Virus record (IMG/VR): IMGVR_UViG_3300035698_022074
Location: 64,001-109,994 of that record
Reading direction: 5' to 3' (one strand)
From: a virus
DNA length: 45,994 nucleotides
The notes beneath the pieces were generated by a model. It was not told the origin of the DNA. It did not search any database and saw nothing but the letters and a program-made list of their open reading frames with translations. A program made the position numbers and the translations under genes. How positions within the stretch are numbered: position 1 is the stretch's first letter; every line of letters begins with the position of its first letter. Positions 1,798 through 26,006 of this stretch are shown piece by piece.

Positions 1798-1808
1798 GGA
1801 AGTAAAGC

Positions 1809-4457: not shown

Positions 4458-7400
4458 TGCCTACTGAGAAACTATTTGAAGTGACAAACAACTCGGTTTC
4501 TACACAACCGTCTAGTAAAAACATTGCATCTAGCGATGGCTCTATTACGTTTGATGTAAACGTTGGAAAGAAAGTCAGTTCTTTTAAACAGAAGGTATCA
4601 CCTGATGCAGATGAAGAAAAGATTGAAATTGACTCTATTGACAGTGTTTCAAAAATATTGCTGGCACATTCTTTAAACGCTAACAAGCCAGAAATCATAG
4701 CTATGGTTGACTTTTTAGCAACTAATCACAGAAGCGAAAAGACACCTGCATCAAGATTATTAGACACTCAATTCATGGCAAGGTCACTTAAGACTGATGA
4801 TGTATCATCTTTAATCTCTGATCTGTCAAGTGATCCAATTGCATCAATTGCATTGACAAAAGCAACCGATGCATACAACAGCCTGACAAAAGACACTAAG
4901 AGAGATCTCAAACTTTTCTCCGTTATATACCAGAACCTAGCTTCTGCAAAAAAGACCCTCGACATCAAAGACAATACAAATCAAATTGCTGCATCTGTTT
5001 CTAAACTAAGAAACTCAAGAGGCAGATCAAAAACTAACAGCACAATACAACCCACACCACCCGGAGTTTTGAGAACATTAAGAGATATTCTAGTGTGTCA
5101 CTTACTATTTAGTGATGATGCTTATGAAAGCATGTCTAATACAAAAGTTCTTTCGCAGTTGATTATCGGCCTGCGAAGTGTTGTATCAAATAGTTCGCCA
5201 AGACTATTTAACGAATTTGTCCCATCACGAGCCGAAGACAGAGACCCTGTAAACATTGCTAAGTCAATTGAGGCATCATCAGATTTTTCATTTGAACCGA
5301 AAGATCTAGCTTCTTTCCCTGTCAATAATGTAAGTAGACGACAAGGTCGAAGTACTAGAAACCCTGCACTGTTTAACCCAAACAAACAGTCAAATTATAA
5401 CAGCTTTGTAGAGTCACTACCCGTTCTTGAAAAAGATCGAATTAAGCTTTTGATCACCCTACTTTCTAAGGAGCTTCGAATCTCTGCAGGAATTGCTAGG
5501 TTGATCAATACAGATATTGGAAGAAAGTTTGCTGTCGAAAATTCTGGACAGCTAATTGAAAACATATTTGGTTCAACTGGAGAGAAGATAACAGGAGAAG
5601 TTCCGACTGACGGAACATTATCTTCTTTAGTTCGTTACGAAGATCCCGCAACAGATGGTGTAATCTTGCCATTTGAAACAAGAGAGGTGGACGATCCTAG
5701 CGACAATAGGCGATACCTTCCCGGAAATACTGCTCTTATAGATTCTATATTAGACTCTGCAATAACACCTAATCTTCTTCCAATTACGCGTCTCAATCAA
5801 CGTGCATCAAGTATCGCTAGTAGCAATATTACAATGATTAACTATTTAATGAATTTTGACAGCACAGACAATACACTTCACAGCGAAAGAGTTGTAACAG
5901 AAATCTTTAATGTCGTGTCAGAAATATCAAAAAGCTTGGGCACACTTGGAAGTGTCGACAGAACTTCCGCTATTACTACAGCGCTAATAAGAGCAGCACG
6001 AGATGACAGTAAGCTTCGTCATCTTCTGTTTAAATACACAAAAGAAATTAGAACAGGAAAAGTTACTGTAACAAAAGTTGTCGACGCTTCCGACGAGAAT
6101 ACAGGAAATGAAGAAACTGGAGGCACATCAGACGATCCTGTTGAAAACAAGAACATAGAGACGAATACTGCAAGCGATCTAGGCACAAAAGACTACGTTA
6201 AAGACTTAGAAGACCTAGTAGAAGATACAAAAAATGATAAACCACTTGAAAAGTTTGATCCCAAAGACAAGTCAAAAGGTAAAGCTGGAGCGAATCCAAC
6301 AAACAAATCTGATGAAAACTCAATTAAAGAGGCCAAGATTAATGAGTCAACAGGTGAGGTAGAGGGTGTCATTTCTTCGAACTCTTTTCCGTTTGAAATT
6401 GAAAAAAGAGTCATGGCACTGTTTAACTCTAACAGAAGAGGTAGAAGACCTGACAATAGTAAACTTTTACTTGACGTTTCTGATGGCGATATTGAGTCAA
6501 TTCTTAACAAGGGTGTGGAAGACTTCTCATCAATATTTAATGCAATTTCCTCTTTGACTGATTCACTTACATCTGATGCATTAACACTAAGCTCGAGAGG
6601 CCCTTCATCTTCTTCAAGTAGCACTGGGCATAAGACAGAAAATGGAGCAACTCGTTTTAGAAAATATACAGACGACACAGTGCTGATGATAGTCTTTGAA
6701 ATATTTTCTGCCATGATATCAGAGTTTGTTTCTGCTGATTTTGGGCCGAACCCAAAAAATTCCACACCCTTGACAATCAGCTTAATTTTAAAGCAAAACA
6801 AAACGATTGCAGACAAGATGACTGCTGTTTCTAGCAAGGACGAAAGACAATTAGAGACGTCGTCGTATAGCACACTAACATCTCTACTCGATAGTATTTT
6901 TAAGGCAACTGTGCTTGAAGACAACATTACGAGAGATCTTGTTGACATGCTTTATAGCATAACTGAGGGCATCAAGAAGAAGACAAACTCTGCAGTCATA
7001 TTCTTTGAAAATAATAACAACGATCCTGCATCACAAAGGGTCAACGAAATAATAAATGACGAAACACTCAAGAGTGCTCTTGCCAATCTCACACCTCAAC
7101 AAATTGCTTTATCATGGCAGAGCTTCAATGAAACACTATTGACGCCAGATAAATCATTAATTTCAAAGTCACAGATCACAAGTAACTCTCAAAAGATAGC
7201 ATTAGACTCGATGCTTAGAGAAAGTAGATTTGAAGAAACAGCTGCAAACAACATGAAGTTAATGGTCGTCGGTCTTCCTGCAGGTACACTTAATAAGCTT
7301 CAAAACCCAATTTTTACTGTCGGAAAGAACACTGAACTAGAGTCTTCTCTTGCAGATTTAATAACAGTCAAAGTCTTCAAGCGTGATCCTGAGTTTTCTG

Positions 7401-8389
7401 AGATTATTTTCAAGCCACTAAACTTTATTTTTGACATGTCAAGGTTTACACAGATCAACGAAAATCTTTCAAGCAGAAATAAAACTTTTACTAGACTCTT
7501 AGATGATGACTTTAAGCTCAAAAATATTGACGGAAAAGGCATTGGGCAATCATTGCTACAGTCAGACATCAAATCAGAAAAAGAATATAGCATTTTGACG
7601 CAAGAAGAGCAAGAAGAACTATTTGAAAATCACGTAGTTGACAGTATCCTTAAAACGTACTTGAAACTATTAACAGGGCTTGATTTTTCCGAATCTTCGT
7701 TTGTTGCAAACGAAGGGCAAGATGTAACGATTAGTCAAGAAATTACAGAGCTATTAACACAAATTAGCGTCACACCGTCACAATCATTTACTTCACTTCA
7801 AAAAACTGACTCTGTAAGTGGAGCACAAGGAATACTTGAGTCAATTAAACAAGGCGCTACAATTTCAAAAACTCTTACTACAGACTATGACTTTATAGCA
7901 ACAAAACCTCCTATTGGAGAAAAAGTTACAACTGGGCAGAATCCCAATACATCAAAGATAAACAAAAAGATTAAATCTGAACCTAAGAGTGCATCTGTCT
8001 CAAGCAGTGCAAAGAAGTTCCAAACGCAAAAGCAAAATGTAACACGCGTTGTGCAGTCAACAGAAGCAGCTCGACAGTTTAAGCGTTTCTTGAACTCATT
8101 GATATTTAGATCAGCAGATCAAGCAAATAAGACTATGCAGCCTAAACTATTTGAAAGAACTTTCATCCTACCTGTTGACCCTGATGATTTTATTATCGAT
8201 GAGGAGGCAACACTAAATACAGAGACAGGACGCGAAGCCTTCAACAGTCTTCTTTTAAACAGTTGTGTAATTGAAGAGAAAGACAAATTTGGAAACAGAA
8301 TCAAGAAAATTACACCAAGAAAGAAGTCAGAAGGCAGCTACGAGTTTTCTGAGATATTTGCTGTGGTTGAATTAGGAGCAAATTCATAA
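4457..8389 (+). CDS. Giant virion structural protein (1310 aa), function unknown
   Basis: Long uninterrupted ORF with TAATG overlap at its 5' end and stop directly abutting the next ATG, giving coupled synteny with the neighbouring structural genes. It contains a poly-Ser tract (SSSSSSS). Confidence 0.7.
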   Translation: MPTEKLFEVTNNSVSTQPSSKNIASSDGSITFDVNVGKKVSSFKQKVSPDADEEKIEIDSIDSVSKILLAHSLNANKPEIIAMVDFLATNHRSEKTPASRLLDTQFMARSLKTDDVSSLISDLSSDPIASIALTKATDAYNSLTKDTKRDLKLFSVIYQNLASAKKTLDIKDNTNQIAASVSKLRNSRGRSKTNSTIQPTPPGVLRTLRDILVCHLLFSDDAYESMSNTKVLSQLIIGLRSVVSNSSPRLFNEFVPSRAEDRDPVNIAKSIEASSDFSFEPKDLASFPVNNVSRRQGRSTRNPALFNPNKQSNYNSFVESLPVLEKDRIKLLITLLSKELRISAGIARLINTDIGRKFAVENSGQLIENIFGSTGEKITGEVPTDGTLSSLVRYEDPATDGVILPFETREVDDPSDNRRYLPGNTALIDSILDSAITPNLLPITRLNQRASSIASSNITMINYLMNFDSTDNTLHSERVVTEIFNVVSEISKSLGTLGSVDRTSAITTALIRAARDDSKLRHLLFKYTKEIRTGKVTVTKVVDASDENTGNEETGGTSDDPVENKNIETNTASDLGTKDYVKDLEDLVEDTKNDKPLEKFDPKDKSKGKAGANPTNKSDENSIKEAKINESTGEVEGVISSNSFPFEIEKRVMALFNSNRRGRRPDNSKLLLDVSDGDIESILNKGVEDFSSIFNAISSLTDSLTSDALTLSSRGPSSSSSSTGHKTENGATRFRKYTDDTVLMIVFEIFSAMISEFVSADFGPNPKNSTPLTISLILKQNKTIADKMTAVSSKDERQLETSSYSTLTSLLDSIFKATVLEDNITRDLVDMLYSITEGIKKKTNSAVIFFENNNNDPASQRVNEIINDETLKSALANLTPQQIALSWQSFNETLLTPDKSLISKSQITSNSQKIALDSMLRESRFEETAANNMKLMVVGLPAGTLNKLQNPIFTVGKNTELESSLADLITVKVFKRDPEFSEIIFKPLNFIFDMSRFTQINENLSSRNKTFTRLLDDDFKLKNIDGKGIGQSLLQSDIKSEKEYSILTQEEQEELFENHVVDSILKTYLKLLTGLDFSESSFVANEGQDVTISQEITELLTQISVTPSQSFTSLQKTDSVSGAQGILESIKQGATISKTLTTDYDFIATKPPIGEKVTTGQNPNTSKINKKIKSEPKSASVSSSAKKFQTQKQNVTRVVQSTEAARQFKRFLNSLIFRSADQANKTMQPKLFERTFILPVDPDDFIIDEEATLNTETGREAFNSLLLNSCVIEEKDKFGNRIKKITPRKKSEGSYEFSEIFAVVELGANS

Positions 8390-10264
8390 ATGCCTTCAAC
8401 ATATCCTTCACGAATTGCAACGCTGGTCGATGTTCCTGATCCACAGAACGTATCAGTCTCATTTCAGTACAACTACTTTACGCCTGATGAAAGAGTAAAT
8501 GACTCGGGTGACAGCGTAAGTCAAAGATCTATTCAAGACGCTGACATTATTGACATTATTGACAAGGTACCTCGTTTTGTCAAGATCACCTGGTCTCCAA
8601 TCAATATTAAGAAATGCAAAACAGACGGAAATGAAGAGGTATCAAGAAGACAGAATATTGCAAGTACAAGAGTCGAAGGTGAAGACATTTTCTCTCAAGA
8701 AAACATCGACTACATACAATCAGAACAAGCCTTTTCTAACTTTGACTTTTCGTCAATTACGTTTCAAGACACAAACATCGACGAAAAACTATTCTCTCTA
8801 GTATCAGGTTCTACAAACATTAAGAACATCGACTTGAATAGCCTAAGTGATGCTGCAAAGTCTCTCAATGACTTCACAAGAGAAACTGTAAACGGAAATA
8901 TACTTGTTGATGCTGTAAACAATAAGTCAAAACTCGGAATTCTAAGTACAGACCCAAGTCCACTCATAAGTAATCGAAAGTCATCATTTGAAGAAGTGAA
9001 AGATCTCAAGATACGAGCACAGATCAATAATAAGTTTGTTGGATCAATAATTAGAACTGTTGCTGAGGATAGCTTGAGTCCATATGCAGACGAACTATCT
9101 AAAATCATTGATATTGCAGCAGACTTACAGGATGCTTCCATAGAAAAAATGGAGTCAACTTCTGTTAGAAGTTCTGAATGGGATTCAAGCTTCGTTCCTA
9201 TTGTACAAGAGCGAATAAAATCAAACGCAAAAAGCTTCGAAGTGTCGAGCTTTGAAGTCGTAGGTTACATTATTACAAAAGTTCAGCTCGCAGCGGATGG
9301 TAGTGAAATTGCCTTTGATCCAATTATGATCAAAGGATCTCAGGCAACGACAGTAATTGATCCAGAGATTGTCTTCGGAGGCGTGTACAAATACAAAGTA
9401 AACGCAATTGCATCTGTCTCTCTAATGGGAAGGGATTCACAAAACAGAAAAGTCAAGTCAACAGGTCTCGTTGCATCACAAGCATCTTCAGTTAGATTTG
9501 TAAACTGCATTGATGCAACACCACCTCCCTTCCCTGCTGATATTAAGCCAACGTGGGATTATGGAGAGAGATCGTTTAGACTTATCTGGAGTTTCCCAGT
9601 CAATAGACAGAGAGACATCAAGTATTTTCAAATATTCCGCAGAAGAACAATCAATGAACCCTTTGAGTTAATTAGGGAATTTGACTTTGACAACAGTATC
9701 ATTCCTGTTGATAGAGGAGAAGATATTGATGACTATCTCGTATACAAAATGAAAGATCCAGTTACTTACTTTTATGATAAAGAATTCGGCAAAGATGACA
9801 CTTTCATATACACGCTGTGCTCAATAGACGCACACGGACTGACATCAAACTATTCAGCCCAATATGAAGTTTCATTCAATAGGTTTACAAATAAACTTGT
9901 GACAAAAGCAATATCGAGATCTGGTGCACCCAAAGCTTACCCAAACATGTTTTTGAAGACTTCTGCGTTCATTGACACTATAAAAGTTTCGTCTTACGAA
10001 AATATGTCTATCTTTTTCGATCCTGAATACTTAAGAGTAACAGATGATAAAAACAATGACCTGAATCTGCTTCCAAGCTCACAAGCATACAGTGAGTTCA
10101 AAGTCCAGGTAATAAACACAGATTTGCAAGCAAGTGAAACAGTTACCCTTACAATAGACGATAGACGAAGAGACAGAAACACAACAGAATCGCTCGGCGC
10201 AAGAGAATTAACTCCTACGCCAAGAAGTTTAAGACGTAATCTTAGTAGTTTACGGAAAGAATAA
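8390..10264 (+). CDS. Virion protein with two FN3/Ig-like domains (624 aa)
   Basis: It contains the motifs W..P......Y.Y.V.A and RLIWSFP...YFQIFRR...Y.YTLCSIDAHGLTS, which resemble fibronectin-III repeats common in phage decoration and fibre proteins. Confidence 0.7.
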   Translation: MPSTYPSRIATLVDVPDPQNVSVSFQYNYFTPDERVNDSGDSVSQRSIQDADIIDIIDKVPRFVKITWSPINIKKCKTDGNEEVSRRQNIASTRVEGEDIFSQENIDYIQSEQAFSNFDFSSITFQDTNIDEKLFSLVSGSTNIKNIDLNSLSDAAKSLNDFTRETVNGNILVDAVNNKSKLGILSTDPSPLISNRKSSFEEVKDLKIRAQINNKFVGSIIRTVAEDSLSPYADELSKIIDIAADLQDASIEKMESTSVRSSEWDSSFVPIVQERIKSNAKSFEVSSFEVVGYIITKVQLAADGSEIAFDPIMIKGSQATTVIDPEIVFGGVYKYKVNAIASVSLMGRDSQNRKVKSTGLVASQASSVRFVNCIDATPPPFPADIKPTWDYGERSFRLIWSFPVNRQRDIKYFQIFRRRTINEPFELIREFDFDNSIIPVDRGEDIDDYLVYKMKDPVTYFYDKEFGKDDTFIYTLCSIDAHGLTSNYSAQYEVSFNRFTNKLVTKAISRSGAPKAYPNMFLKTSAFIDTIKVSSYENMSIFFDPEYLRVTDDKNNDLNLLPSSQAYSEFKVQVINTDLQASETVTLTIDDRRRDRNTTESLGARELTPTPRSLRRNLSSLRKE

Positions 10265-10303
10265 TGAGCATATACTTACTAACAGCTAAGGAGAAATCCG
10301 AAA

Positions 10304-11026
10304 ATGGGTTTTCTAGATCATTCAACTAACAACATCATTCTTGATGCTGTTCTAACAGACACAGGCAGAGAGTTCTTAGCAAGAAACGATGGATCTTTTT
10401 CTATTGTTAAATTTGCTCTTTCTGATGACGAAGTAGATTACACTATCATCAAGAAGTTTGGACGCGCAGTCGGAAAAGAAAAGATTGAAAAGAACACACC
10501 CGTTCTCGAAGCACTTACTAATCAAAACTTTGCACAAAAATTCAAGCTTGTGAGTGTATCAAATCCTAACCTTCTTAGACTTCCTATTTTAAACTTGACA
10601 GGAGAAGGGCTTGATACAACGGGTGCAGTCCTAGCAATGGGAAGAACAGGATCAGGAAGATCTCGCAGAATAATTCTTTCACAGAACATCCAAGATGAAG
10701 ATGCAATTGACGTTGAGCTAAGAGACCAAGCCTTCCAGGTATCGATGCCTAACAACTTAATCGAAGTTACGGGTCGGACACCTGATAGTATTGACAAGGA
10801 CAACATCGCAACTTACCTTCTTACAAGGGATGCTACATCACTCTCGACAGGAGGATCTCAATTGACTCTTGACATTAGTGTTAAATCAATAACAGATACA
10901 ACGTTTACAGTTAAGGGCAATGTCAACGATAAGACAACAATTAGTACACGCGCTTCAATTACCGGTTTGCAATCTGGTGTAACTAAAAACTTTGAGATTC
11001 AAATCTCTAAGACTAACGCTGCTTAA
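10304..11026 (+). CDS. Structural protein (240 aa) sharing the N-terminal module with the 889..1797 product
   Basis: RBS AAGGAGA is 8 nt upstream. The N-terminus MGFLDHSTNNIILDAVLTDTGREFLA...FALSDDE is paralogous to MAGILDNKSRIFDTILTTEGRRQLA...FASFSDA. Confidence 0.6.
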   Translation: MGFLDHSTNNIILDAVLTDTGREFLARNDGSFSIVKFALSDDEVDYTIIKKFGRAVGKEKIEKNTPVLEALTNQNFAQKFKLVSVSNPNLLRLPILNLTGEGLDTTGAVLAMGRTGSGRSRRIILSQNIQDEDAIDVELRDQAFQVSMPNNLIEVTGRTPDSIDKDNIATYLLTRDATSLSTGGSQLTLDISVKSITDTTFTVKGNVNDKTTISTRASITGLQSGVTKNFEIQISKTNAA

Positions 11027-11037
11027 GGGACAAAATA

Positions 11038-12273
11038 ATGGCAACATTTAAAGAGCTTACAGCTCAAGATATTAAAACAAGTAGAACATTCCTTACACAG
11101 CTAATTGATGTGTTAAGAGAAGATATATCTGGATCGACTTCTAGAAAATCTTACCCAGTATTTGTCACAGGCGGAGTTGGACCAGGTGTAACGTCATCAA
11201 TCTTCCAGACTGTGTACGACCAAAACTTTAACCTACAGACTGCAAACCCAATATTTGACATGACACTTGGTCTTTATGTGTCAGGCAACACTGTCCAGAA
11301 TGCAAAGACAGGAGAGGACACATCAGGAAAGATTCTGTTTCCATCGTCAAGTTTGATGATGAGAGAAAAGATAGACGTCTATCGACAGTTTGCGCAGAAC
11401 CTTCTTGGAAATGCGTCTTCATACTTTACTGCGCCCTTTAATTCAACAGGTAGCGTAGATCAGATAGACGAAGCATTATTCTTCTCTTTCAAGCGACTTT
11501 TTGCAAGAGACTCTATAAGAAGAGAAACTTTCGCAATGAAGATGTTTACAACTGGCGCAGGAACTCTAGTTGACACAGGATCAATTGAAGACTTTCCTAA
11601 CCTGCAAGAAGTCACACCATCAGGTTCAACTATTTTCACAGACATTGGTTCTGCAGGAAACCAGCTAATTTCGTTTGGTGGAAATGTAGGTAATCTTGTA
11701 GATTCTTCACAAACAACACGAAACGTCGGTCTCGTCTTCTATGATCAGGGAATTGTAGTTTTAGACGCAAAGAAAGCATTTGACGCTAATCAGCACATGT
11801 CAGGTGCAATTGATGCACTTCTAGCTACTAGCCCAGACGGTGTTTTACCAGCAGGAAAGGAAGTCCTCGGTGGCGTAAACAGTGGAAATAGAAACGCTAA
11901 GTTTATACCGGATCTTATGGTATCAGCATCTATGGATAACATTCTAGACCACATTGCGTCTGTAAGATTCAATTCTGGTTCTTTTACGTCGATATCCTTC
12001 CAGAACACAACTAACATTAACAGCACGCTGATATTCTGCAAAGCTACAGCTGATGAATTTAATTACTCTTCAAATCCGACGTACACAGACTCTTCTAATA
12101 GACTCGTAGTAATTGATGAAGGTCAAGAAGGCACACAACAATCGTTCTCCTTCATCACAGGTATTGGAATGTACGATGCAAATGATAATTTGCTTGCTGT
12201 TGCTAAAGTTAGTAGGCCAGTTGAAAACAACCCAGAGAAAGACTTGACGTTCCGAATCAGACTTGACTTCTAA
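11038..12273 (+). CDS. Structural protein (411 aa) with a conserved C-terminal module shared with the 12311..14632 product
   Basis: Its C-terminus ITGIGMYDANDNLLAVAKVSRPVENNPEKDLTFRIRLDF aligns with ITNIAIHDENLNVVARTNLAQPIVKRSADKVMFKIKMDW. Confidence 0.65.
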   Translation: MATFKELTAQDIKTSRTFLTQLIDVLREDISGSTSRKSYPVFVTGGVGPGVTSSIFQTVYDQNFNLQTANPIFDMTLGLYVSGNTVQNAKTGEDTSGKILFPSSSLMMREKIDVYRQFAQNLLGNASSYFTAPFNSTGSVDQIDEALFFSFKRLFARDSIRRETFAMKMFTTGAGTLVDTGSIEDFPNLQEVTPSGSTIFTDIGSAGNQLISFGGNVGNLVDSSQTTRNVGLVFYDQGIVVLDAKKAFDANQHMSGAIDALLATSPDGVLPAGKEVLGGVNSGNRNAKFIPDLMVSASMDNILDHIASVRFNSGSFTSISFQNTTNINSTLIFCKATADEFNYSSNPTYTDSSNRLVVIDEGQEGTQQSFSFITGIGMYDANDNLLAVAKVSRPVENNPEKDLTFRIRLDF

Positions 12274-12310
12274 TTTGCAAACAGGTCGGGTCCGCTAAAA
12301 GGAAAGTCAA

Positions 12311-14632
12311 ATGTCAATAGTAAAGCTGACAAAAGATAAGTTTGAGAATTTTAATCTTGTCACAAATCCAAAGCGAGTTTTTGCCTCATCTTCTTTAGAT
12401 GGATCAACTGGAGATGTCAATCTTTTCGCTAGAGAGAACAGGATTGTCAAAGAAACTTCTACTTACTTCTCCGGTGGGCTTTCTTCTTTTGACGAAACAG
12501 TAGGCGTCGAGATAGAGTTAATCTCTGCAAAAAATGCTAGCAGCGGAGAATTATCTGAAAAAGTCCAGGACTATCTCGACGCTGTAAGTAGTGAATCGTT
12601 ATCTACAAGGCAAAACGCGTCGCTAGCTATAAGTAGGGTTACTCCCGGCTTGACAGTTAACAAGAACCATTTAAAAAAGATGGCCATTGTCAATACTTTG
12701 ATACCGTTTTATTCAACAAGATATCAAGACATGGACTTTAGCTATACAAACTATAGTTCACTTAACTTCTTCACAGCATCAAGTGTGCCTGAAGACACCG
12801 TCTTGATATACCCAGGCGCAACTGAGGGTGACACAACCAAGCGTTACTATCACCCATCAGGAGCATTCTCACTTGATCTCCAAATTAAACCTTCTCCCAA
12901 GTTCTTTGACAAAGATCAAGCGTTCCATGCAGGTACAGTAATGCATGTTTCTTCTACATTTGCATTGTCAATAGTTTCTGGTTCAAGAAAAGATAAGAAC
13001 GGAAACCCTGAATCATTTCGTGTTATGTTGCAGTTGTCCCATAGTGCAGACATAGAGCCTTCTTCAATAGATCTGACTGTAAGTAACAATGACAGAACTT
13101 ATCCCGAAGATCTTGTCTTTTTGTCGTCAGACAATGTTCTTTCACGAGACACCTGGCACAACGTTGTTGCTCGATGGGGGACAAAAGATTATAACGAAGG
13201 GACCGGTTCATTTGTTATTGACAGTGTTATTAAAGGTGAATTTAATGTACCGTCTGCATCAATTAAAGACACATCATCATCACAGTTGTATTTGGGAAAT
13301 TATTACACGGCACCACCCAGCAGTACACCTGAACGATTCTTTAATGCGATTGTAAATAGTAGCGAAGGACTCGAACTTCTCACTGCAGGATCAGCAGATC
13401 CATCTGGATTTTCTTTTTCTCATCCTCTCAACGCAGAAATGCATGACGTCAAAGTATTTAACAGCTACAGAACAATTAGCCAGATCTTGACATCATCGAT
13501 TCAAGGTCAAGAGTCTGTAAGCGGAATGCTCTTTTACGTGCCTGTGTTCTTTACCAGAGAATCTCCGAGTAGAGACAGGTACATTACACAATTTGAAAAA
13601 AGAGAATCCGAATCGTCTGCGCCATTTAATGTCGGCCTTGCTTTTCAAGTTGGAGGACATGAGATAAATATAGACAATTTTACTAGAGACTTTGCAAGAT
13701 CTGCATATCCACGCCAATACAACTTGACAGGAACACTTCATACACAAACTTCACTGAGTACAACAGATCGACTATACTCTGATCCTGCCTTCGCTAAAAG
13801 GAATCTGACAATTCTTCCATGTGACAACGGAAGGTTCACACCAAACTTCAAGCTATTAAAGTCAGGAAGTGAAACAGCCCTTTTCGTATCAGGTTCACCA
13901 ACAGAGAGGTTCAGATCAGATCTTGGAGTGACTGACTTTAAAAAGATTAACTTGCGAAACTTTATTAGCGATGATGTGCTGCAGACTGCTGTTTCTGGTC
14001 AGTTAGAAGATAATATTTACGGAGCATCACCTGAAGATCCGACAGTTGTCGTAGGCGCTGTCCCGACCGTATTTCAAAGGACGAGAGACTCAAGTTCAAA
14101 TCAAGTAACAATATTCAATATACCGTCTTTGTTTTACGGAAAACGAATCAAACCTGGTTCTCTAATTATTAGGGATAACTCACTGTCGGGATCAAGTGAA
14201 AGCGTCCAGATAGAACTAAGAGACAATGGTGACGGCTCACTGTATCGTCACAACGCATCGGGTACAAATGCATCATGGAACAGCGTAGGGAATATCTTCT
14301 ACAATGAGGGAATTGTCTTTATTAAGTCTCCGCACCTTAGCTTTTTTGGAAAAGGCTCATTTGAAGTAGAGTTTAACGGAGAAAGATCGATCTTTGTATC
14401 AAAAGTTAATGTAACTGCACAAGCCTCAATGATAAATTCGTCGTCAAACCCATCATACAAACATCTCTCAGCATCACTTAACGCCAATGATGAAGACAGC
14501 GAATTTGTTTACATTACTAACATCGCGATCCATGATGAGAATCTAAACGTTGTCGCACGAACGAATCTCGCTCAACCTATTGTTAAGCGAAGCGCAGACA
14601 AGGTTATGTTCAAAATTAAGATGGATTGGTGA
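12311..14632 (+). CDS. Large structural protein (773 aa), probably a baseplate or fibre component
   Basis: RBS AGGAAAG is upstream. It shares a C-terminal module with the preceding gene. Its stop overlaps the ATG of the resolvase gene. Confidence 0.7.
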   Translation: MSIVKLTKDKFENFNLVTNPKRVFASSSLDGSTGDVNLFARENRIVKETSTYFSGGLSSFDETVGVEIELISAKNASSGELSEKVQDYLDAVSSESLSTRQNASLAISRVTPGLTVNKNHLKKMAIVNTLIPFYSTRYQDMDFSYTNYSSLNFFTASSVPEDTVLIYPGATEGDTTKRYYHPSGAFSLDLQIKPSPKFFDKDQAFHAGTVMHVSSTFALSIVSGSRKDKNGNPESFRVMLQLSHSADIEPSSIDLTVSNNDRTYPEDLVFLSSDNVLSRDTWHNVVARWGTKDYNEGTGSFVIDSVIKGEFNVPSASIKDTSSSQLYLGNYYTAPPSSTPERFFNAIVNSSEGLELLTAGSADPSGFSFSHPLNAEMHDVKVFNSYRTISQILTSSIQGQESVSGMLFYVPVFFTRESPSRDRYITQFEKRESESSAPFNVGLAFQVGGHEINIDNFTRDFARSAYPRQYNLTGTLHTQTSLSTTDRLYSDPAFAKRNLTILPCDNGRFTPNFKLLKSGSETALFVSGSPTERFRSDLGVTDFKKINLRNFISDDVLQTAVSGQLEDNIYGASPEDPTVVVGAVPTVFQRTRDSSSNQVTIFNIPSLFYGKRIKPGSLIIRDNSLSGSSESVQIELRDNGDGSLYRHNASGTNASWNSVGNIFYNEGIVFIKSPHLSFFGKGSFEVEFNGERSIFVSKVNVTAQASMINSSSNPSYKHLSASLNANDEDSEFVYITNIAIHDENLNVVARTNLAQPIVKRSADKVMFKIKMDW

Positions 14633-16585: not shown

Positions 16586-19500
16586 ATGAAGAGCGAAAAG
16601 AAAAATGTCAGGATTGCACACTTTGCAGACATACACTGGCGTGGATTGACACGACACAAAGAGTATCGTGAAGTCTTTAGTAAGATTTTTGAAATGCTTC
16701 GTGAACAAAAACCCGATATCATTTACATTGGCGGCGATATTGTTCATAGCAAAACTCAAGGAATCTCTCCAGAGCTTATTGATGCACTTGTATGGATGTT
16801 TACAGGCTTTGCAAATATTGCTCCAACAGAAGTCATTCTTGGAAATCACGATGGTATTCTACTAAACAAAGATCGCCAAGACACAATCACTCCGATTATC
16901 ACAGCACTTAGCCATCCAAATATCAAACTCTATAAAGAGTCAGGAACGTATCCAATAGGTATTCCAGGGTTCAGCTGGAACGTTTTTTCTTGCTTCGATG
17001 AAGATAATTGGAGTAAAGTCCGCCCAAAACCTGGGGACATTAACATAGCACTATTTCACGGTGGAGTGCTTGGTTCAACTACTGATATTGACTGGCATAT
17101 TGAAGGAGAAGTTGACGTAAACTTCTTTGAAAGATTCGATTTTGCTCTACTCGGTGACATCCACAAAGTCCAGTTTCTTAACCCAAAGAAGACAGTTGCT
17201 TACTGTGGAAGCACAGTTCAACAAAACTACGGAGAGGATACAAACAAAGGGTATCTGCTTTGGGATATTAGGGACAAAGATGACTTTGATGTTAACTTTC
17301 ATAAAGTCGAAGGCCCTAAGCCGTTTGTTACAGTAAACTGGGAAGGGAATGTCCAGAAAACACTTAAGGCACTCAAAGATCTTAAAGACGGCTCAAGAGT
17401 CAGGATACGCACAAAAGAATCGATCCCGTCAGTTGAGTGGAAGCAACTGTGTAATGAACTAGAAATTCTAAAAGCACCATCAGAAGTTGTATCTAAAGAT
17501 GAACGACTTGTAGATACACAACAAATTTCAACTGAGGCTGTTACTCTCTTTAAGAACGATCTCAAAGATCCCGATGTGATTGTCAACCTACTTGAAGAGT
17601 ATTTTAAAGAGTCATCGCTCTCTGAGAAAGACTGGAACGATCTTGAGGCACTAACGAGAAGTTATGTCAAGTCAATATCACGGTCAGGTTCGTTGTCAAG
17701 AAGTCATAAGTGGTCAGTTAAGAAACTTGAGTTTGATAACACTTTCTCTTATGGCAAGGGAAACGTCATTGACTTTGACTCAATGAATGGCATAACGGGA
17801 ATCTTTGGTAGAAATGCTCGAGGTAAGTCATCAATTGTAGGTGCATTAATGTACTGTCTGTTTAACACAACAGATCGTGGTCCTATTAAAATCCTACACG
17901 TAATCAATACCAGAAAAGACTATTGCCGTGCTAAGGCAACAATACAGCAAGGTGAAAACCTGCTTAGGGTTGAGAGACAGTCTGTCAAAAACAAGAACGC
18001 AAAGGGTCACGAATCGGCTTTAACTCATCTCAATATCTTTAAGATTGATAACAATGGAAATGAGCTTGCTGATTTAAGTAAAGAGCAGAGGCGTGTAACT
18101 GAAAGGGATCTGCGTGAAAAGTTCGGCACATCAGATGATTTCTTGCTAACTTCACTCGCATCACAGGGTGAGATAAACGCATTTATCAAGCAGCGTAGCA
18201 CTGCTAGAAAGCACATGCTTACAAGGTTTTTGGGCCTTGACATATTTGAAAATCTGTTTAATCTTGCAAAAGAAGAGTCAAGAGAGATACAGACTAAAGT
18301 TAAATCTGCACCAGATCGTGATTGGGATTCATTGATTCACGAAGCAAAAAATGAAATCAAGGATTTGTCGAGTAGGGTTAACAGTATCGAAGATGAACTC
18401 TCTGAAATGAGACTCGATGAACAGAAACTGCAGATTAAACTAAGCAAGTTTGAAAACGCTGATGTTGTAACGTGTGCTGATGTTGAAAGACAGCAGACAC
18501 TTACAGATTCTGCAAAGAAGAGTCTAGAAAACCTTATCACTAGACGAAATGCAATCTTTGAGAAAATTGAAAATCTAGAAGTCAAAATCAAGAAGATCCA
18601 AGAAGTCAAAGAGTCTACTTCTATTGAAGATCTCAAAGCATCACTTAAAAATCAAAGAGCACTAGGTGCGTCTCTAGTACAAATCAAGCACTCTCATGAA
18701 AAAGAACAAACCCTCCTTAGGTCACAGTTAAGATCTGTTGCAAAGCTTAAGGACGTACCCTGTGGTGACTCTTTTCCAATGTGCAAGTTCATCAAGGACT
18801 CCCACAAAGATAAGCAAAAAATAGAAGCACAAGAAGAGAAGATTAAGGCACTTCTTGAGCATATTGAAAATGCTCAAGAACAGTTTGATCAAGTCATGAG
18901 TGAAGACCTTGAAGACAAGATTGATAAGTACGAAAAGATCATGCGAATGGAGTCAACACTTAAAATTGAATTGACGCAAAATCAAAGCAATGCTAAGTCA
19001 ATCAAAAGAGACATTGAAAGCCTTGAAAGCAAAATCACACAGAGTGAGCAAGATCTAGAAGATCTTAAATCTAAAATGGTTGACAGTGACATTGATCAAG
19101 AGCTTAATAATTTAAAGGCAAGACTCTACGAAGAGAAAAGTTTAATCTCGTCAAAGGATGCAAAGAGAATATCGTGTGCAAGTTCAATTGGACGACTTGA
19201 AGTCACACTACAAAATCTTAAGAGTGAGAAATCCAAGTATCAAAAACTTAAGCAGAAGTGGAGAATCTTTGAATACTTCATTCAGGCTGTCTCTAAGCGA
19301 GGTCTCCCTCTTCAGATAATCATGTCTCAATTGCCAGTTATTAATGCTGAAGTTTCTAAAATTCTTCAAGGCGTTGTTTCGTTTACAGTTGAGCTTGAAG
19401 CAGATCCAAATTCAAACTCAATGGATGTCTATATTAACTACGGCGACAGCAAGAGGGTCATTGAAGTAGCATCTGGAATGGAAAAGATGATCTCTTCTCT

Positions 19501-19744
19501 CGCCATTCGTGTTGCGTTAATCAACATCTCTTCTCTTCCTAAAACAGACATGCTAATTATTGACGAGGGGTTTGGTTCTCTAGATGATGTAAACGTAGAG
19601 GCATGCAATAGGCTTCTAGTCTCTCTCAAAAAGTGGTTCAAGAACATCATTATCATTACTCATGTTGACGGAGTCAAGGATGTTGTAGACAATGTTATTG
19701 ACATCACATGGGAAGGAAAGGATGCCAAGGTTGTTTACGAATAA
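16586..19744 (+). CDS. Fused Mre11/SbcD-like nuclease (N-terminal) and Rad50/SbcC-like ATPase (C-terminal) in a single polypeptide
   Basis: Phosphoesterase motifs HFADIHW, GGDIVH, GNHD, FHGG and GDIH are present. The Rad50 part has P-loop GRNARGKSS, a long coiled coil, a signature-like SGMEK, Walker B LIIDEGF and H-loop IITHV. Its C-terminus aligns with the T4 gp46 C-terminus. ATG 16586 has AAAGG 10 nt upstream, and the listed GTG 16577 is an alternative start. Confidence 0.85.
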   Translation: MKSEKKNVRIAHFADIHWRGLTRHKEYREVFSKIFEMLREQKPDIIYIGGDIVHSKTQGISPELIDALVWMFTGFANIAPTEVILGNHDGILLNKDRQDTITPIITALSHPNIKLYKESGTYPIGIPGFSWNVFSCFDEDNWSKVRPKPGDINIALFHGGVLGSTTDIDWHIEGEVDVNFFERFDFALLGDIHKVQFLNPKKTVAYCGSTVQQNYGEDTNKGYLLWDIRDKDDFDVNFHKVEGPKPFVTVNWEGNVQKTLKALKDLKDGSRVRIRTKESIPSVEWKQLCNELEILKAPSEVVSKDERLVDTQQISTEAVTLFKNDLKDPDVIVNLLEEYFKESSLSEKDWNDLEALTRSYVKSISRSGSLSRSHKWSVKKLEFDNTFSYGKGNVIDFDSMNGITGIFGRNARGKSSIVGALMYCLFNTTDRGPIKILHVINTRKDYCRAKATIQQGENLLRVERQSVKNKNAKGHESALTHLNIFKIDNNGNELADLSKEQRRVTERDLREKFGTSDDFLLTSLASQGEINAFIKQRSTARKHMLTRFLGLDIFENLFNLAKEESREIQTKVKSAPDRDWDSLIHEAKNEIKDLSSRVNSIEDELSEMRLDEQKLQIKLSKFENADVVTCADVERQQTLTDSAKKSLENLITRRNAIFEKIENLEVKIKKIQEVKESTSIEDLKASLKNQRALGASLVQIKHSHEKEQTLLRSQLRSVAKLKDVPCGDSFPMCKFIKDSHKDKQKIEAQEEKIKALLEHIENAQEQFDQVMSEDLEDKIDKYEKIMRMESTLKIELTQNQSNAKSIKRDIESLESKITQSEQDLEDLKSKMVDSDIDQELNNLKARLYEEKSLISSKDAKRISCASSIGRLEVTLQNLKSEKSKYQKLKQKWRIFEYFIQAVSKRGLPLQIIMSQLPVINAEVSKILQGVVSFTVELEADPNSNSMDVYINYGDSKRVIEVASGMEKMISSLAIRVALINISSLPKTDMLIIDEGFGSLDDVNVEACNRLLVSLKKWFKNIIIITHVDGVKDVVDNVIDITWEGKDAKVVYE

Positions 19745-22159: not shown

Positions 22160-22750
22160 ATGTTGAGAGAACTTATAAATCTTACTCTTGAGTCAATAAG
22201 TGTTTCTGACAATCTTAAAGAAAGAGGCGTCGATACTAGCAAGACACGTGTAATAGTTAGTGAAGAAGAAAGCACAGCAGTTTTCTTGCTTTACAATTCT
22301 TCGGGTCAACTAGTTGGATATCAACAATATAGGCCTGGTGCTTCTAAATCACAAAACAATGATCCTAAAGCTGGACGCTATTTTACCTTCTTAGGAGACG
22401 AAGGGAAGGGCAAGAAGATTGGTGTTTGGGGGCTGGAAACTATTACACCTTCTACACAGACAGTGTATATTGTAGAGGGAATCTTTGATGCAATTAAAAT
22501 TGCAAACTTAGGAAAAGCAGTACTTGCTGTCTTTACAAATAATCCAAAACACCTTACAAACTGGCTGTATTCACTTAGTATGAAAATTATTGCAATTTTA
22601 GACAACGATGAGAGTGAAGTAGGAAAGAAACTCGGCAGATTTGCTAGTGAGTCCTATATTACACCAGAACCCTACAAAGACTTAGGTGACATGCCTCAAA
22701 GTGAAGTTTCAAGCTTCATAAAGGAAATTGAAAGTGGCCAAAGAAGATAA
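22160..22750 (+). CDS. Primase-core (TOPRIM) paralog lacking the zinc-binding domain
   Basis: YIVEGIFD with AILDNDE (TOPRIM E...DxD), and KDLGDM, all parallel the primase at 15527 and T4 gp61 (LEGPID, VLDNEP, KDVNDM). The N-terminal MLRELINL...KERGV matches primase MLATLINS...KRRGV. RBS AAGAGG precedes ATG 22160, and the listed start at 22139 overlaps TerL. Confidence 0.7.
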   Translation: MLRELINLTLESISVSDNLKERGVDTSKTRVIVSEEESTAVFLLYNSSGQLVGYQQYRPGASKSQNNDPKAGRYFTFLGDEGKGKKIGVWGLETITPSTQTVYIVEGIFDAIKIANLGKAVLAVFTNNPKHLTNWLYSLSMKIIAILDNDESEVGKKLGRFASESYITPEPYKDLGDMPQSEVSSFIKEIESGQRR

Positions 22751-25700
22751 TCAAAATCTATTTCAGAGACTCACAACGCTGTTTCGAAGCGGTCCAGTCA
22801 TTAAGAGAAAAGTCAAAGCATTTAAAGAGCCTTCGGTCTCGTCAGCTAATCAAGTTTTTAAGAAGTCTCTGAGCACAAGTTACAGTACAGCAATGAGTGC
22901 TTACGGCACTTATGATAGAATGTCAAGATATAGTGACTATGCAGAGATGGAGTACACACCAGAAATTGCAAGTGCACTCGACATTTACTCTGAAGAGACT
23001 GTTGCTAACGATGACAAAGGTAGAGTGCTAACTGTCTATTCTGAAAACAGACAGGTTCAGAGACTACTCGAAGAGCTATTCTACGACACACTAAATGTTG
23101 AATTCAACTTGACGCCCTGGTCAAGAGACATGGTTAAACACGGCGATTTCTTCTTGTTTAATGACGTGTCGCCAGAATATGGGGTGCTTAACGTATTCCC
23201 AATTCCTGTTAACGAAATAGAAAGAGAAGAAGGGTACGATCCACAAGATCCGATGGCTGTAAGGTTTAGGTGGATCACAAACGGAAACACTATTCTCGAA
23301 AACTGGCAGATCACACACTTTAGGCTTCTGGGTAATGATGCATTCTTGCCATACGGTACATCAGTCTTAGAGTCAGCAAGAAGAATTTGGCGACAACTAA
23401 TACTCATTGAAGACGCTATGCTAGTCTATAGAATTGTTAGATCTCCAGAGCGAAGAGTCTTCTACGTTGACGTCGGAAATGTGCCACCAGAAGATGTTCC
23501 TAACTACATGGAGCAAGCTAAGACAATACTAAGAAGTAACCAAGTTGTCGACAGTCAAACAGGAAGAGTCGACTTACGATACAACCCATTACCTGTCTGG
23601 TCGAAGACACCAATTCCTCTACTTGATGGTAGAACAATTGCTATCAAAGATCTTGCAAAAGAGTTTGATGAAGGTAAAGAAAACTGGGTTTACTCAATTC
23701 AAGACGATACACAGAAGATCGTTCCAGGAAAAGTAGTTTGGTGTGGTAAGAACTATACTGCAGAGAAGTTAATTAAAGTATGGCTTGATGATGATACATG
23801 GGCCATGACAGCACCAGAGCACCCGTTTGTACTTAGGGATGGTTCTAATAAGCGAGCTGATAAACTTACGGCGGGCGATCGACTAATGCCGCTATACAGA
23901 AGACTAAGTAACAAATCTGACGGTGATTATGTTGATGATTACGAACAGGTCTACGATCCACATACAAGCAGGTTTATTTATACCCACAAGGCAATTTCAA
24001 GAACTGCGTGTATTGATCACGACAGAAAGCTTAAAAACAAAACGATCCATCACGTAAATCATAAGAAGTGGGACAATAGACCTGAAAATCTGCAGGCGAT
24101 GACATGGTTCGAGCACAAGGCACATCATGCATCTGCAAACAGAACTCAGGCACATCGCGATCTTGTTTCAATGAATAACAAGAAGTACAACAAGGGCCAA
24201 AACATGGCTAAAATGTACAATGGAAGTCTACTTCACAAGCAGCATAACGAAATCAGAAGTAAGGTTCAGTCAAGCTACTGGAATGATAAAATACACAGTC
24301 GTAATAGATGCAATAACATGTCATGGAACATACCTGCATCAATCGTAGAGTTTTCTATTCATAAGGCTCAAACAAACCCAAGGCTAACAAGAGAAAATCT
24401 CACGGAAGCCATTAGAAACAACAAAACGCTAATTGAAGATCTAGCTGTTGCTAACAGTGAAAATAGACGAGATCCTGATCTTTTTAGCTCTGCTGCAATT
24501 ATAAATGCATTCAAGCGAAATGGTGTTTGCAATAATTGGACAGAGCTCAGAGCACTTATGTCAGAAGGAGAGATTGAGTACAAGAATCACAGTGTGTCTA
24601 GAGTTGAAGAAGTCTACAAAAACGAAGATGTCTATTGCATGACCGTAGTGGGTCCGGACGGTCAAGACGACAGACACAACTTTGCAATGCAGACTATTCA
24701 AGAAGGTTCCAAGGAATCAACTCTTAATTCACTAGAAGGATTAGTTCGTCAGGACAAAAACTTAACACCATCATCGGGAAGAACGACTCTACCGTCCGGT
24801 ATCTTTGTAAAGAATTCCGTCGATGAGGATTACTTCATTCCAACTAGAGGTGGAGAAGGAGGATCAAAAATAGAGACTCTAGCAGGTGGCACAAACGTAA
24901 CTGCAATTGAAGATGTTGAGTACATCCAGAAGAAGCTATTTTCTGCGCTAAAGATTCCTAAGGCTTACTTGGGATACGATGAAGCTATCGGATCAAAGGC
25001 AACACTAAGCCAAGAAGATATTCGATTCTCAAGAACAATCAACAGAATACAAAGAACTGTCATCTCTGAGCTTAATAAGCTTGCGATTATACACTTGTAC
25101 TCAAATGGATACGAAGGTGAAGATCTTCTAGACTTTGAGCTTAATCTATGCAATCCATCAACTGTTGCGCAGCAACAGAAGCTTGAAATCTACAGAACAC
25201 GACTTGAAATAGCAGGATCCGCTCCTGAGGGTGTTGTTGACAGATATTGGATTCGAAAGAATATCATGAACCTCACAGATGATGAAATCGATCGTATCGA
25301 AAAGGGTCGCGTTGACGATAAGACATCCGATCTTAAGATTGAAGGTATCTCGCAAGAAACTAGCGGTGAATCCGACGATTTCTCTGGCGGTGGTGGAGGA
25401 GGATTTGGAGGCCTAGGCGGCGGCGGAGATTTTGGAGAAGAAGGCGAAGGAGAGCCAGGCGAGGAAGGTGAAGAACCTGCCGATGGAGAAGACGCTGGCG
25501 GAGATGAAGATGATGGAGATCTTGATGATGATCTCTTTGCATCACAAACCATAAAGGGTCTTACTCTAATAGACGAAGACGACGATGACACTGATGAAGA
25601 GTTTACTTACTCAATTAATGATGGCGATGCACCAATTAAAGCACAAGCCCAATTGGACAAAGTTCTTAAAAATAGAAAGAGAAGAAAGACTCATGGCCCA

Positions 25701-26006
25701 GAAAAGACAGGAATCCCTGATTTTAAGCGTATGGTAAATCACGAGAGACCTGGCGATTCTTTGACAGATCCTTATGATACACATCGCCTTAATCAAATAG
25801 ATCCGATGAAAGAGATTGTCGGCAGAGAAGATCCTTTTGACGCATTCCTCAATAGAAGTGTCAAACAACAAGCTAGAATATCACTATCTCTAAAGTCAAC
25901 GTTAAAATCACTTAAGAAAGAGATAAGTAAGAAGGCGCCCAGAAGTATTATTACTGAATCTGATGCTGAGGGTAATAACACGGAGAGTGAAGACACTAAT
26001 GATTAA
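22728..26006 (+). CDS. Portal protein, T4 gp20-like, carrying an about 375-aa intein-like insertion and a long acidic/Gly-rich C-terminal extension
   Basis: LILIEDAMLVYRIVRSPERRVFYVDVGNVP aligns with T4 gp20 [30 protein letters not shown]. After the insertion, DEDYFIPTRGGEGGSKIETLAGG aligns with [23 protein letters not shown]. The start is TTG 22728 or GTG 22734. Confidence 0.9.
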   Translation: MKVAKEDNQNLFQRLTTLFRSGPVIKRKVKAFKEPSVSSANQVFKKSLSTSYSTAMSAYGTYDRMSRYSDYAEMEYTPEIASALDIYSEETVANDDKGRVLTVYSENRQVQRLLEELFYDTLNVEFNLTPWSRDMVKHGDFFLFNDVSPEYGVLNVFPIPVNEIEREEGYDPQDPMAVRFRWITNGNTILENWQITHFRLLGNDAFLPYGTSVLESARRIWRQLILIEDAMLVYRIVRSPERRVFYVDVGNVPPEDVPNYMEQAKTILRSNQVVDSQTGRVDLRYNPLPVWSKTPIPLLDGRTIAIKDLAKEFDEGKENWVYSIQDDTQKIVPGKVVWCGKNYTAEKLIKVWLDDDTWAMTAPEHPFVLRDGSNKRADKLTAGDRLMPLYRRLSNKSDGDYVDDYEQVYDPHTSRFIYTHKAISRTACIDHDRKLKNKTIHHVNHKKWDNRPENLQAMTWFEHKAHHASANRTQAHRDLVSMNNKKYNKGQNMAKMYNGSLLHKQHNEIRSKVQSSYWNDKIHSRNRCNNMSWNIPASIVEFSIHKAQTNPRLTRENLTEAIRNNKTLIEDLAVANSENRRDPDLFSSAAIINAFKRNGVCNNWTELRALMSEGEIEYKNHSVSRVEEVYKNEDVYCMTVVGPDGQDDRHNFAMQTIQEGSKESTLNSLEGLVRQDKNLTPSSGRTTLPSGIFVKNSVDEDYFIPTRGGEGGSKIETLAGGTNVTAIEDVEYIQKKLFSALKIPKAYLGYDEAIGSKATLSQEDIRFSRTINRIQRTVISELNKLAIIHLYSNGYEGEDLLDFELNLCNPSTVAQQQKLEIYRTRLEIAGSAPEGVVDRYWIRKNIMNLTDDEIDRIEKGRVDDKTSDLKIEGISQETSGESDDFSGGGGGGFGGLGGGGDFGEEGEGEPGEEGEEPADGEDAGGDEDDGDLDDDLFASQTIKGLTLIDEDDDDTDEEFTYSINDGDAPIKAQAQLDKVLKNRKRRKTHGPEKTGIPDFKRMVNHERPGDSLTDPYDTHRLNQIDPMKEIVGREDPFDAFLNRSVKQQARISLSLKSTLKSLKKEISKKAPRSIITESDAEGNNTESEDTND
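23601..24728 (+). mobile_element. Intein-like Hint domain with a nested HNH homing endonuclease inside the portal gene
   Basis: Block A-like SKTPIPLLDGRTIAIKDL. Block B TAPEHPF (TxxH). HNH motif HHVNHKKWDNRPENLQAMTWFEHKAHH. Block F VYCMTVVGPDGQDDRHNF. The likely C-terminal junction is STLN followed by S. The flanking extein sequences align contiguously with T4 gp20. Confidence 0.6.

Follow-up and report, generated by a model that had tools for sequence, protein, structure and literature searches.

A 45,994-nt stretch of viral DNA (positions 64,001 to 109,994 of the IMG/VR record IMGVR_UViG_3300035698_022074; hereafter, the window, whose positions serve as coordinates for its genes) carries a gene that very probably encodes a single-chain Mre11-Rad50 (SbcD-SbcC) DNA-end-processing machine. 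Its source would be a marine phage with T4-type head genes, and the protein would belong to the natural fusion family of the Mimivirus R555 type. The nuclease and the ATPase lie in one intact reading frame, and the centre of the Rad50 coiled coil, where a CxxC zinc hook is expected, bears two cysteines spaced C-x6-C that are present in every family sequence covering this site.

The gene occupies an uninterrupted open reading frame (ORF) on the plus strand, with a start at GTG 16577 or ATG 16586 and a stop at 19742–19744. Counted from the ATG, which has AAGG ~10 nt upstream, the product is 1052 amino acids (aa) long. Antisense ORFs within 16586–19744 are all ≤104 aa and unremarkable, and a promoter and terminator scan returned counts at chance level. 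A preliminary description of this DNA had quoted ten motif strings and assigned them to a single frame, and all ten were found in the ORF 16586–19744. The N-terminal half contains the phosphoesterase strings HFADIHW (D15, H17), GGDIVH (D51, H54), GNHD (N87, H88), FHGG (H158), and GDIH (D191, H193), and the Rad50 half contains GRNARGKSS (K414), SGMEK (residues 963–967), LIIDEGF (D993, E994), and IITHV (H1026). The tenth string, PCGDSFPMC (C726, C733), lies within nt 18752–18805, which translate to DVPCGDSFPMCKFIKDSH. The gene and its parts are as follows:

16586..19744, plus strand: fused Mre11-Rad50 gene, complete (1052 aa plus stop; intact ORF; full-length homologs at 32–68% identity)
16607..17305, plus strand: Mre11/SbcD phosphoesterase (nuclease) domain, aa 8–240 (Pfam Metallophos; motifs I–V; Foldseek matches 7dog, 4o43, and 3qg5)
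17306..17551, plus strand: capping domain, aa 241–322 (beta-rich domain 247–322 in the AlphaFold2 model; Foldseek match 7dog)
17552..17707, plus strand: short linker, helix-loop-helix, and 8-residue linker, presumed Rad50-binding domain (AlphaFold2 model; position as in Thermotoga maritima Mre11, PMC3175470)
17708..18235, plus strand: Rad50 N-terminal ATPase lobe, aa 375–550, with Walker A G405-x7-G413-K414-S-S and Q-loop Q527 (AAA_23; SbcC/Rad50 matches in the PDB)
18236..18751, plus strand: ascending coiled-coil arm, aa 551–722, with breaks at 621–629 and 678–679 (AlphaFold2 helices 552–574, 580–620, 630–677, and 680–722)
18752..18805, plus strand: coiled-coil apex DVPCGDSFPMCKFIKDSH, aa 723–740, presumed variant zinc hook, with C726 at 18761–18763 and C733 at 18782–18784 (translation, AlphaFold2 model, conservation)
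18806..19291, plus strand: descending coiled-coil arm, aa 741–902, with breaks at 772–774 and 831–837 (AlphaFold2 helices 734–771, 775–830, and 838–902)
19292..19741, plus strand: Rad50 C-terminal ATPase lobe, aa 903–1052, with SGMEK 963–967, D993-E994, D-loop D1000, and H-loop H1026 (SbcC_Walker_B; C-lobe matches in the PDB)

The identity of both halves was established by independent searches. Pfam Metallophos (aa 9–194, E = 8.5e-13) and AAA_23 (aa 380–605, E = 3.5e-14) both exceed their gathering scores, one in each half, and SbcC_Walker_B (aa 955–1012, E = 5e-4) falls under its own. In PHROGs, the best family match is phrog_77, 'SbcC-like subunit of palindrome specific endonuclease' (aa 254–1051, E = 4.5e-57), and a metallophosphoesterase family is matched at aa 8–218. 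Using a profile built from 24 members of the fusion family, we searched the sequences of the PDB and found that Escherichia coli SbcC is the best solved-structure match for the ATPase half (E = 3.3e-22). The same profile also matches archaeal and T. maritima Rad50 heads as well as the Mre11/SbcD proteins of T. maritima, Pyrococcus, and E. coli, and the Rad50 C-lobe matches have E-values of 1e-11 to 1e-9.

A monomeric AlphaFold2 model of the fusion, for which 118 homologs were given as input (mean pLDDT 83.2), folds into an Mre11-like and a Rad50-like half, in agreement with the structural comparisons. In the Mre11 half, the nuclease domain (aa 8–240) is followed by the capping domain (247–322) and two predicted helices (329–339 and 347–366) that form a helix-loop-helix, and an 8-residue linker precedes the first Rad50 strand at 375. 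The Rad50 half comprises an N-lobe from aa 375, two coiled-coil arms (552–722 and 734–902) joined by an 11-residue non-helical tip (aa 723–733), and a C-lobe (907–1048). The two arms form an antiparallel coiled coil in which breaks are paired across the arms at 621–629/831–837 and 678–679/772–774, ~95 and ~40 residues from the apex. The top Foldseek matches in the PDB are Rad50, SbcC, and Mre11/SbcD structures: the first is Rad50 with its coiled coil (7zr1_C, E = 2e-19), SbcC 7yzp_C is also listed, the nuclease and capping domains of SbcD (7dog) align over ~340 columns (TMt 0.69), and T. maritima Mre11 (3qg5) aligns over ~400 columns, with Mre11 4o43 matched as well. The helix-loop-helix lies at the expected site of the Rad50-binding domain of Mre11, and its predicted tethering to the base of the coiled coil, as put forward in the preliminary description, is reasonable. 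The claim of that description that Mre11 (SbcD) and Rad50 (SbcC) are joined in one polypeptide is thus borne out by the intact ORF together with the agreement of Pfam, PHROG, PDB sequence search, AlphaFold, and Foldseek.

Conservation was determined from a MAFFT alignment of 270 family sequences, fewer of which cover some positions. The metal-ligand residues D15, H17, D51, H54, N87, H88, H158, D191, and H193 are 99–100% conserved, as counted in 241 sequences, and every phosphoesterase metal-ligand position is occupied. The nuclease motifs deviate from the Mre11 pattern at a single point, motif V, where GDIH has an Asp (D191) in place of the first His, and this Asp is invariant in the family. 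In the Rad50 head, the Walker A, Q-loop, signature, Walker B, D-loop, and H-loop are all present, and K414, Q527, S963, G964, E966, D993, E994, D1000, and H1026 are 98–100% conserved. Among these, K414 is found in 269/269 sequences, Q527 in 267/270, and the Walker B E994 in 267/267. The intact Walker B Glu argues for a Rad50 predicted to hydrolyse ATP.

We considered whether separate sbcD-like and sbcC-like genes had been joined artefactually, by an assembly or sequencing error or a frameshift, or else by recent read-through, and found this to have next to no probability. A precedent exists in the Listeria phage LMTA-57 (KJ591605; positions 2995–6024 of our locus L001), in which an annotated 1009-aa 'recombination exonuclease' apparently reads through an intergenic spacer (...KRRRKR-M-FTFKK...; junction ...PQLFLLTFLVKYSILKLQIKRRRKRMFTFKK...). 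Herelleviridae related to LMTA-57 keep the sbcD-like and sbcC-like genes separate. Given the apparent read-through and a classical CPTC hook, this 'fusion' was rejected as a relative. For the window gene, a word-indexed search recovered 2496 proteins (E ≤ 1e-5), the best 120 of which are all fusions of ~1045 aa with 49–68% identity and 99% query coverage, mostly from marine metagenomes and on contigs of up to 322 kb; several of them carry the JGI label 'SbcCD ATPase subunit/SbcCD nuclease subunit'. An exhaustive search yielded 10,544 cluster representatives with E ≤ 1e-3, of which 2018 reach E ≤ 1e-30; most of the top 150 are full-length fusions, down to 32% identity. The homologs derive from Tara, ENA, JGI, and IMG/VR, that is, from independent samples and assemblers, and 245 of the 270 aligned sequences are full length. 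Relatives are encoded on at least 591 viral contigs of IMG/VR. Among the 80 best of these loci, 77 have a longest ORF of ≥1000 aa with GNHD, the P-loop, and DEGF in one uninterrupted frame, and the three exceptions include one ORF that ends at a contig edge and one split form. The region of the linker and helix-loop-helix shows few indels (mean of 3.5 residues; mean identity of 0.26 in 234 full-length homologs) and is filled by a predicted folded element, and the junction DNA (17520–17760) is free of homopolymer runs, stop codons, and internal ribosome-binding sites. The frameshift artefact that the preliminary description had proposed to check for is therefore ruled out for the family by end-to-end conservation across hundreds of independent assemblies and by the clean junction DNA.

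Split and otherwise variant relatives were inspected individually. LR756508, an uncultured huge phage, has the gene interrupted directly after motif V (GDIH), with the N-terminal part at 2944–3675 of our locus L003, a 305-aa ORF at 3665–4582, and the C-terminal part at 4584–7169. The inserted ORF is free-standing and Cys-rich and encodes a TnsA-like endonuclease domain (E = 5.8e-6). About 17 representatives of ~860 aa begin just after motif V as well, at the same point as the LR756508 split, which suggests recurrent insertion of a mobile nuclease that left a two-piece gene. These ~860-aa proteins were rejected as unfused Rad50 since their start lies inside the Mre11 domain, after motif V. Another apparent 'Rad50-only' form comes from a JGI 3300033143 contig (representative P0264, locus L090, 2230–2400), in which a single in-frame TAA falls in the linker that leads from the helix-loop-helix to Rad50 (...ESLVKK*LTDIT...RNVKWHIKRMEFDN...). 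The gene order of this locus is identical to that of the window, and homology continues in frame past the TAA, from which the gene caller reports a 674-aa 'Rad50-only' protein. The TAA could reflect an error, a nonsense mutation, or a gene that is naturally split and restarts at the next Met. On this one inspected case, a derived disruption or an error, 'Rad50-only' representatives were rejected as the ancestral unfused state. Four representatives are longer, at 1400–1779 aa (P0202, P0205, P0213, and P0249); their matches break between query positions ~92 and 414, three of them at the P-loop of Walker A (411–414), suggesting that they carry large insertions, possibly inteins.

The preliminary description had presented the fused arrangement as unlike known systems. 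The fusion itself is real, and its novelty does not stand: Yoshida, Claverie and Ogata (2011, Virol J 8:427; PMC3175470) described Mimivirus R555 as an N-terminal Mre11 fused to a C-terminal Rad50, together with twelve more fusions in bacteria, plasmids, eukaryotes, and a Bacillus phage. They also reported close R555 homologs on 249 Global Ocean Sampling (GOS) scaffolds that are enriched in viral fractions and have mostly phage neighbours, notably primases and endonucleases, although just a few long GOS fragments allowed the fusion to be confirmed (PMC3175470). R555 has a His for the last Asp of motif II and an Asp for His206 of Pyrococcus furiosus Mre11, and in the T. maritima complex the Mre11 C-terminus lies ~28 Å from the Rad50 N-terminus, so that a fusion in this order is sterically reasonable (PMC3175470). 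R555 and the window protein share the Mre11-then-Rad50 order in one ORF, the capping domain and helix-loop-helix between the halves, the GDxxH form of motif II (GGDIVH, H54), and the Asp of motif V (GDIH, D191), and the genomic context of the window protein matches that of the GOS homologs (marine viral, with primase and endonuclease neighbours). They differ in size and setting: R555 has 1351 aa and belongs to a giant eukaryotic virus, whereas the 1052-aa window protein is encoded beside T4-type phage head genes. The plasmid-borne fusions named in the 2011 paper were sought in PLSDB by tblastn, which gave just weak partial matches to ordinary SbcC and SbcD. The fusion is thus not new; first described in 2011, it occurs very commonly in marine viral data, to which the window protein adds a further member.

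As a working model, two chains would join into an M2R2-like assembly, with contacts at the Mre11 dimer interface, between heads engaged in an ATP-dependent manner, and at the apex. By binding and hydrolysing ATP, the assembly would clamp DNA ends and license the nuclease, producing recombinogenic ends for recombination-dependent replication and repair, as is done by T4 gp46/gp47. The covalent link would enforce a 1:1 stoichiometry and hold the Rad50-binding helices at the coiled-coil base of their own chain. The genes immediately upstream of the fusion encode a RuvC-like resolvase and a primase, neighbours that fit a role in recombination and replication. We also weighed a reading that makes the protein an ATPase-nuclease of a Lamassu-like (LmuB-type) or other SMC-like kind, deployed in conflicts between viruses or between virus and host, for example to destroy competitor or host DNA. 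The PADLOC LmuB model PDLC03859 matches the whole Rad50 half end to end (375–1043, E = 4.6e-34), more strongly than the NCBIfam SbcC model does, and Foldseek lists LmuB and Wadjet JetC structures at ~1e-11. However, LmuB itself has a Rad50-like head, a coiled coil that is short, and a hook at the tip, and it is marked out by a Walker B motif in which Gln has replaced Glu; this Glu is kept in all 267 family sequences at E994. LmuB moreover works with LmuA and LmuC (bioRxiv 2025.03.14.643221), whereas the partner fused to the N-terminus here is a bona fide Mre11 with capping domain and helix-loop-helix and not an LmuA effector or LmuC. The best family match remains the phage SbcC-like phrog_77, and a conserved block running from RuvC and primase to terminase is present in every contig inspected. 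On the intact Walker B Glu and this replication-to-packaging context, the LmuB reading was rejected, and we regard a defence or conflict function of this kind as improbable.

Several observations weigh against the assignment to the R555-type family as a single-chain end-processing machine. The NCBIfam SbcC model TIGR00618 scores 84.3 bits (cut-off 478.5) and the SbcD model TIGR00619 scores 29.1 bits (cut-off 77.65), and the Rad50 equivalog models score 33–64 bits (cut-offs 700–1087). With SbcC and SbcD scores so far under the curated cut-offs, the family is a distant branch and not an ortholog of cellular SbcCD. The signature motif in the family is SG[M/A]EK, not SGGE/Q, and the apex is P-C-x6-C in place of the central CxxC of a zinc hook; the AlphaFold2 monomer is also less confident at the apex (pLDDT 67–75). 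The window protein is best read as a full-length phage-borne member of the R555-type family by shared features and the 2011 description. Likewise, the nuclease and ATPase functions of the fusion family are predicted from sequence and model, and zinc binding, oligomeric state, and docking of the helix-loop-helix are putative properties of the fusion, derived in the same way.

The apex (723–740) is the most conserved region of the protein, with a mean identity of 0.72 to the window protein over 234 full-length sequences; the corresponding values are 0.53–0.65 for the nuclease domain and ATPase lobes and 0.24–0.27 for the coiled-coil arms, low sequence identity being typical of coiled coils. It lies at the exact centre of the coiled coil, between arms of 171 and 169 residues in the AlphaFold2 model, and follows the consensus L-x-[DE]-V-P-C-G-D-x-F-P-x-C-K-F-I-K-D-S-H. 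All 269 sequences that extend over the apex have both C726 and C733, with a spacing of x6 in ~262, x7 in three, and x8 in three, and none of the 269 has CxxC there. By contrast, a classical central CxxC was found in all six other phage Rad50/SbcC homologs examined (Bastille, CPMC; phage G, CNFC; Staphylococcus phage NHSP6, CPVC; Listeria phage LMTA-57, CPTC; LR756501, CVTC; LR756508, CEYC), which marks the expanded loop as derived in the fusion clade. The C-x6-C that the preliminary description had noticed at the expected position of the hook has accordingly turned out to be invariant and clade-specific. The 2011 fusion paper contains no mention of hook, zinc, or CXXC (PMC3175470), we found no later literature on natural Mre11-Rad50 fusions or non-CxxC hooks beyond it in the library searched, and according to a 2020 review the hook is defined by CxxC (PMC7752040). 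As far as we found, no description of the conserved C-x6-C apex exists, and such novelty as the present results have lies there alone.

What the altered hook does can be inferred from its sequence in two ways. We propose tentatively, with limited confidence, that a distinct and enlarged type of Rad50 zinc hook is formed by the P-C-x6-C apex (with x7 or x8 in a few sequences), replacing CxxC in a very large marine-phage fusion clade and altering the geometry of tip dimerisation or its choice between cis and trans. The two invariant cysteines of each chain would most likely share one Zn2+ with those of the partner chain, on a loop four residues longer than the classical hook. A less probable alternative is that the C-x6-C apex is an intramolecular metal site or structural cap, the tips not being dimerised via a shared Zn or interacting otherwise. 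The length of the loop, four residues beyond any classical hook, speaks for this alternative, as does the frequent presence of two potential extra ligands, D728 (221/269 sequences) and H740 (209/268). Both are, however, replaced by non-ligand residues in more distant members, so that only two cysteines, the classical hook count, are invariant in the 269 sequences, which speaks for a Zn(Cys)4 site shared between chains, like that of classical hooks. The highest conservation of the protein also falls at the apex, as expected for an interface, and in LR756508, the nearest relative with CxxC, the place of CEYC near the middle of the Rad50-like part suggests that the loop arose by expansion of a classical hook, a comparison made by position.

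A subclade of eight sequences (P0046, P0058, P0078, P0097, P0105, P0110, P0118, and P0121) departs from this pattern, with the apex P-C-[DES]-C-F-E-H-L-P-S-C, that is, C-x-C-x2-H-x3-C. Its apex would offer four potential ligands per chain instead of two and could bind a metal within one chain, in line with the intramolecular alternative. Under the expanded-hook proposal, this subclade may have switched to an intramolecular zinc site.

Comparison with known systems places the fusion at some distance from each of them. In T4, gp47 (Mre11) and gp46 (Rad50) are separate genes; motif V reads GHxH, the hook is a classical CxxC, and the coiled coils are far shorter. The window, with its T4-type head genes, presumably shares with T4 the role of this complex in end processing for recombination-dependent replication. 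No close sequence relationship to gp46/gp47 is detectable, and tblastn matches to gp46 of T4-like Vibrio phages are <30% identical. Both chains of E. coli SbcCD (PDB 6s6v, 7yzo, and 7yzp) are matched by Foldseek, and its mechanism of an ATP-driven clamp and nuclease presumably applies to the fusion; SbcC and SbcD are separate subunits with a CxxC hook, whereas the window protein is one chain with C-x6-C. Among uncultured huge phages, LR756501 (735 kb) encodes a 1202-aa Mre11-Rad50 fusion with the classical hook CVTC. LR756508 (484 kb), with the hook CEYC, is the closest deposited relative of the window, at ~30% identity for the fusion and 49% for the major capsid protein, and has the same order of primase and then Mre11-Rad50.

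Downstream, the window carries T4-type genes for the large terminase subunit (TerL), portal (gp20), protease (gp21), and major capsid protein (gp23). A related 322-kb contig (ERZ23486784 scaffold_1) has the same order as the window: RuvC-like, primase, fusion, two small ORFs, TerL, portal, and protease. The phage collection searched contains no near-identical DNA for the window, and the assembly index holds no record of the exact window protein. By capsid protein, the nearest deposited relatives are the huge phage LR756508, Flavobacterium phage immuto, Microcystis phage Mel-JY01, and Rhodothermus phage RM378. The source of the window is probably a divergent marine phage with T4-type head genes from a jumbo-phage lineage, to which the shared gene order on the 322-kb contig points. 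In a survey of jumbo phages, SbcC and SbcD were nearly universal in jumbo myoviruses.

Other features of the window were recorded alongside. The portal gene (gp20; 22728–26006, plus strand) encodes 1092 aa, compared to 690 aa in the related contig, and contains an intein (Pfam Intein_splicing at aa 297–642, with an HNH_3 endonuclease at aa 436–460). The gp23-type major capsid protein (31561–33486, plus strand; 641 aa) has a ~240-aa insertion (roughly aa 110–345) that is rich in Gly, Ala, Ser, and Thr, has no intein or other Pfam match, and coincides with a local GC content of 0.47–0.50, compared to ~0.40 elsewhere. Upstream of the RuvC-like gene, eight large consecutive ORFs (62–14632, plus strand; 275 to 1310 aa, including 882, 1310, 624, 411, and 773 aa) are unmatched in Pfam and PHROGs at E ≤ 1e-3. 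Among them, the 773-aa ORF gives just a faint hint of Laminin_G, and its counterpart on the 322-kb contig has 1067 aa.

In a very large lineage of marine phages, the fused form is the norm, as documented by at least 2000 cluster representatives and no fewer than 591 contigs in IMG/VR. As a single chain of ~1050 aa with intact motifs and fixed stoichiometry, this Mre11-Rad50 protein is convenient for structural and single-molecule work. To our knowledge, the CxxC hook is generally treated as universal in Rad50/SbcC. The invariant C-x6-C tip offers a natural test of hook geometry, since related clades have CxxC and one subclade has four potential in-chain ligands. If the apex is indeed an expanded hook with a possible intramolecular switch, these lineages would form a natural series for studying the contribution of the hook to Mre11-Rad50 function.

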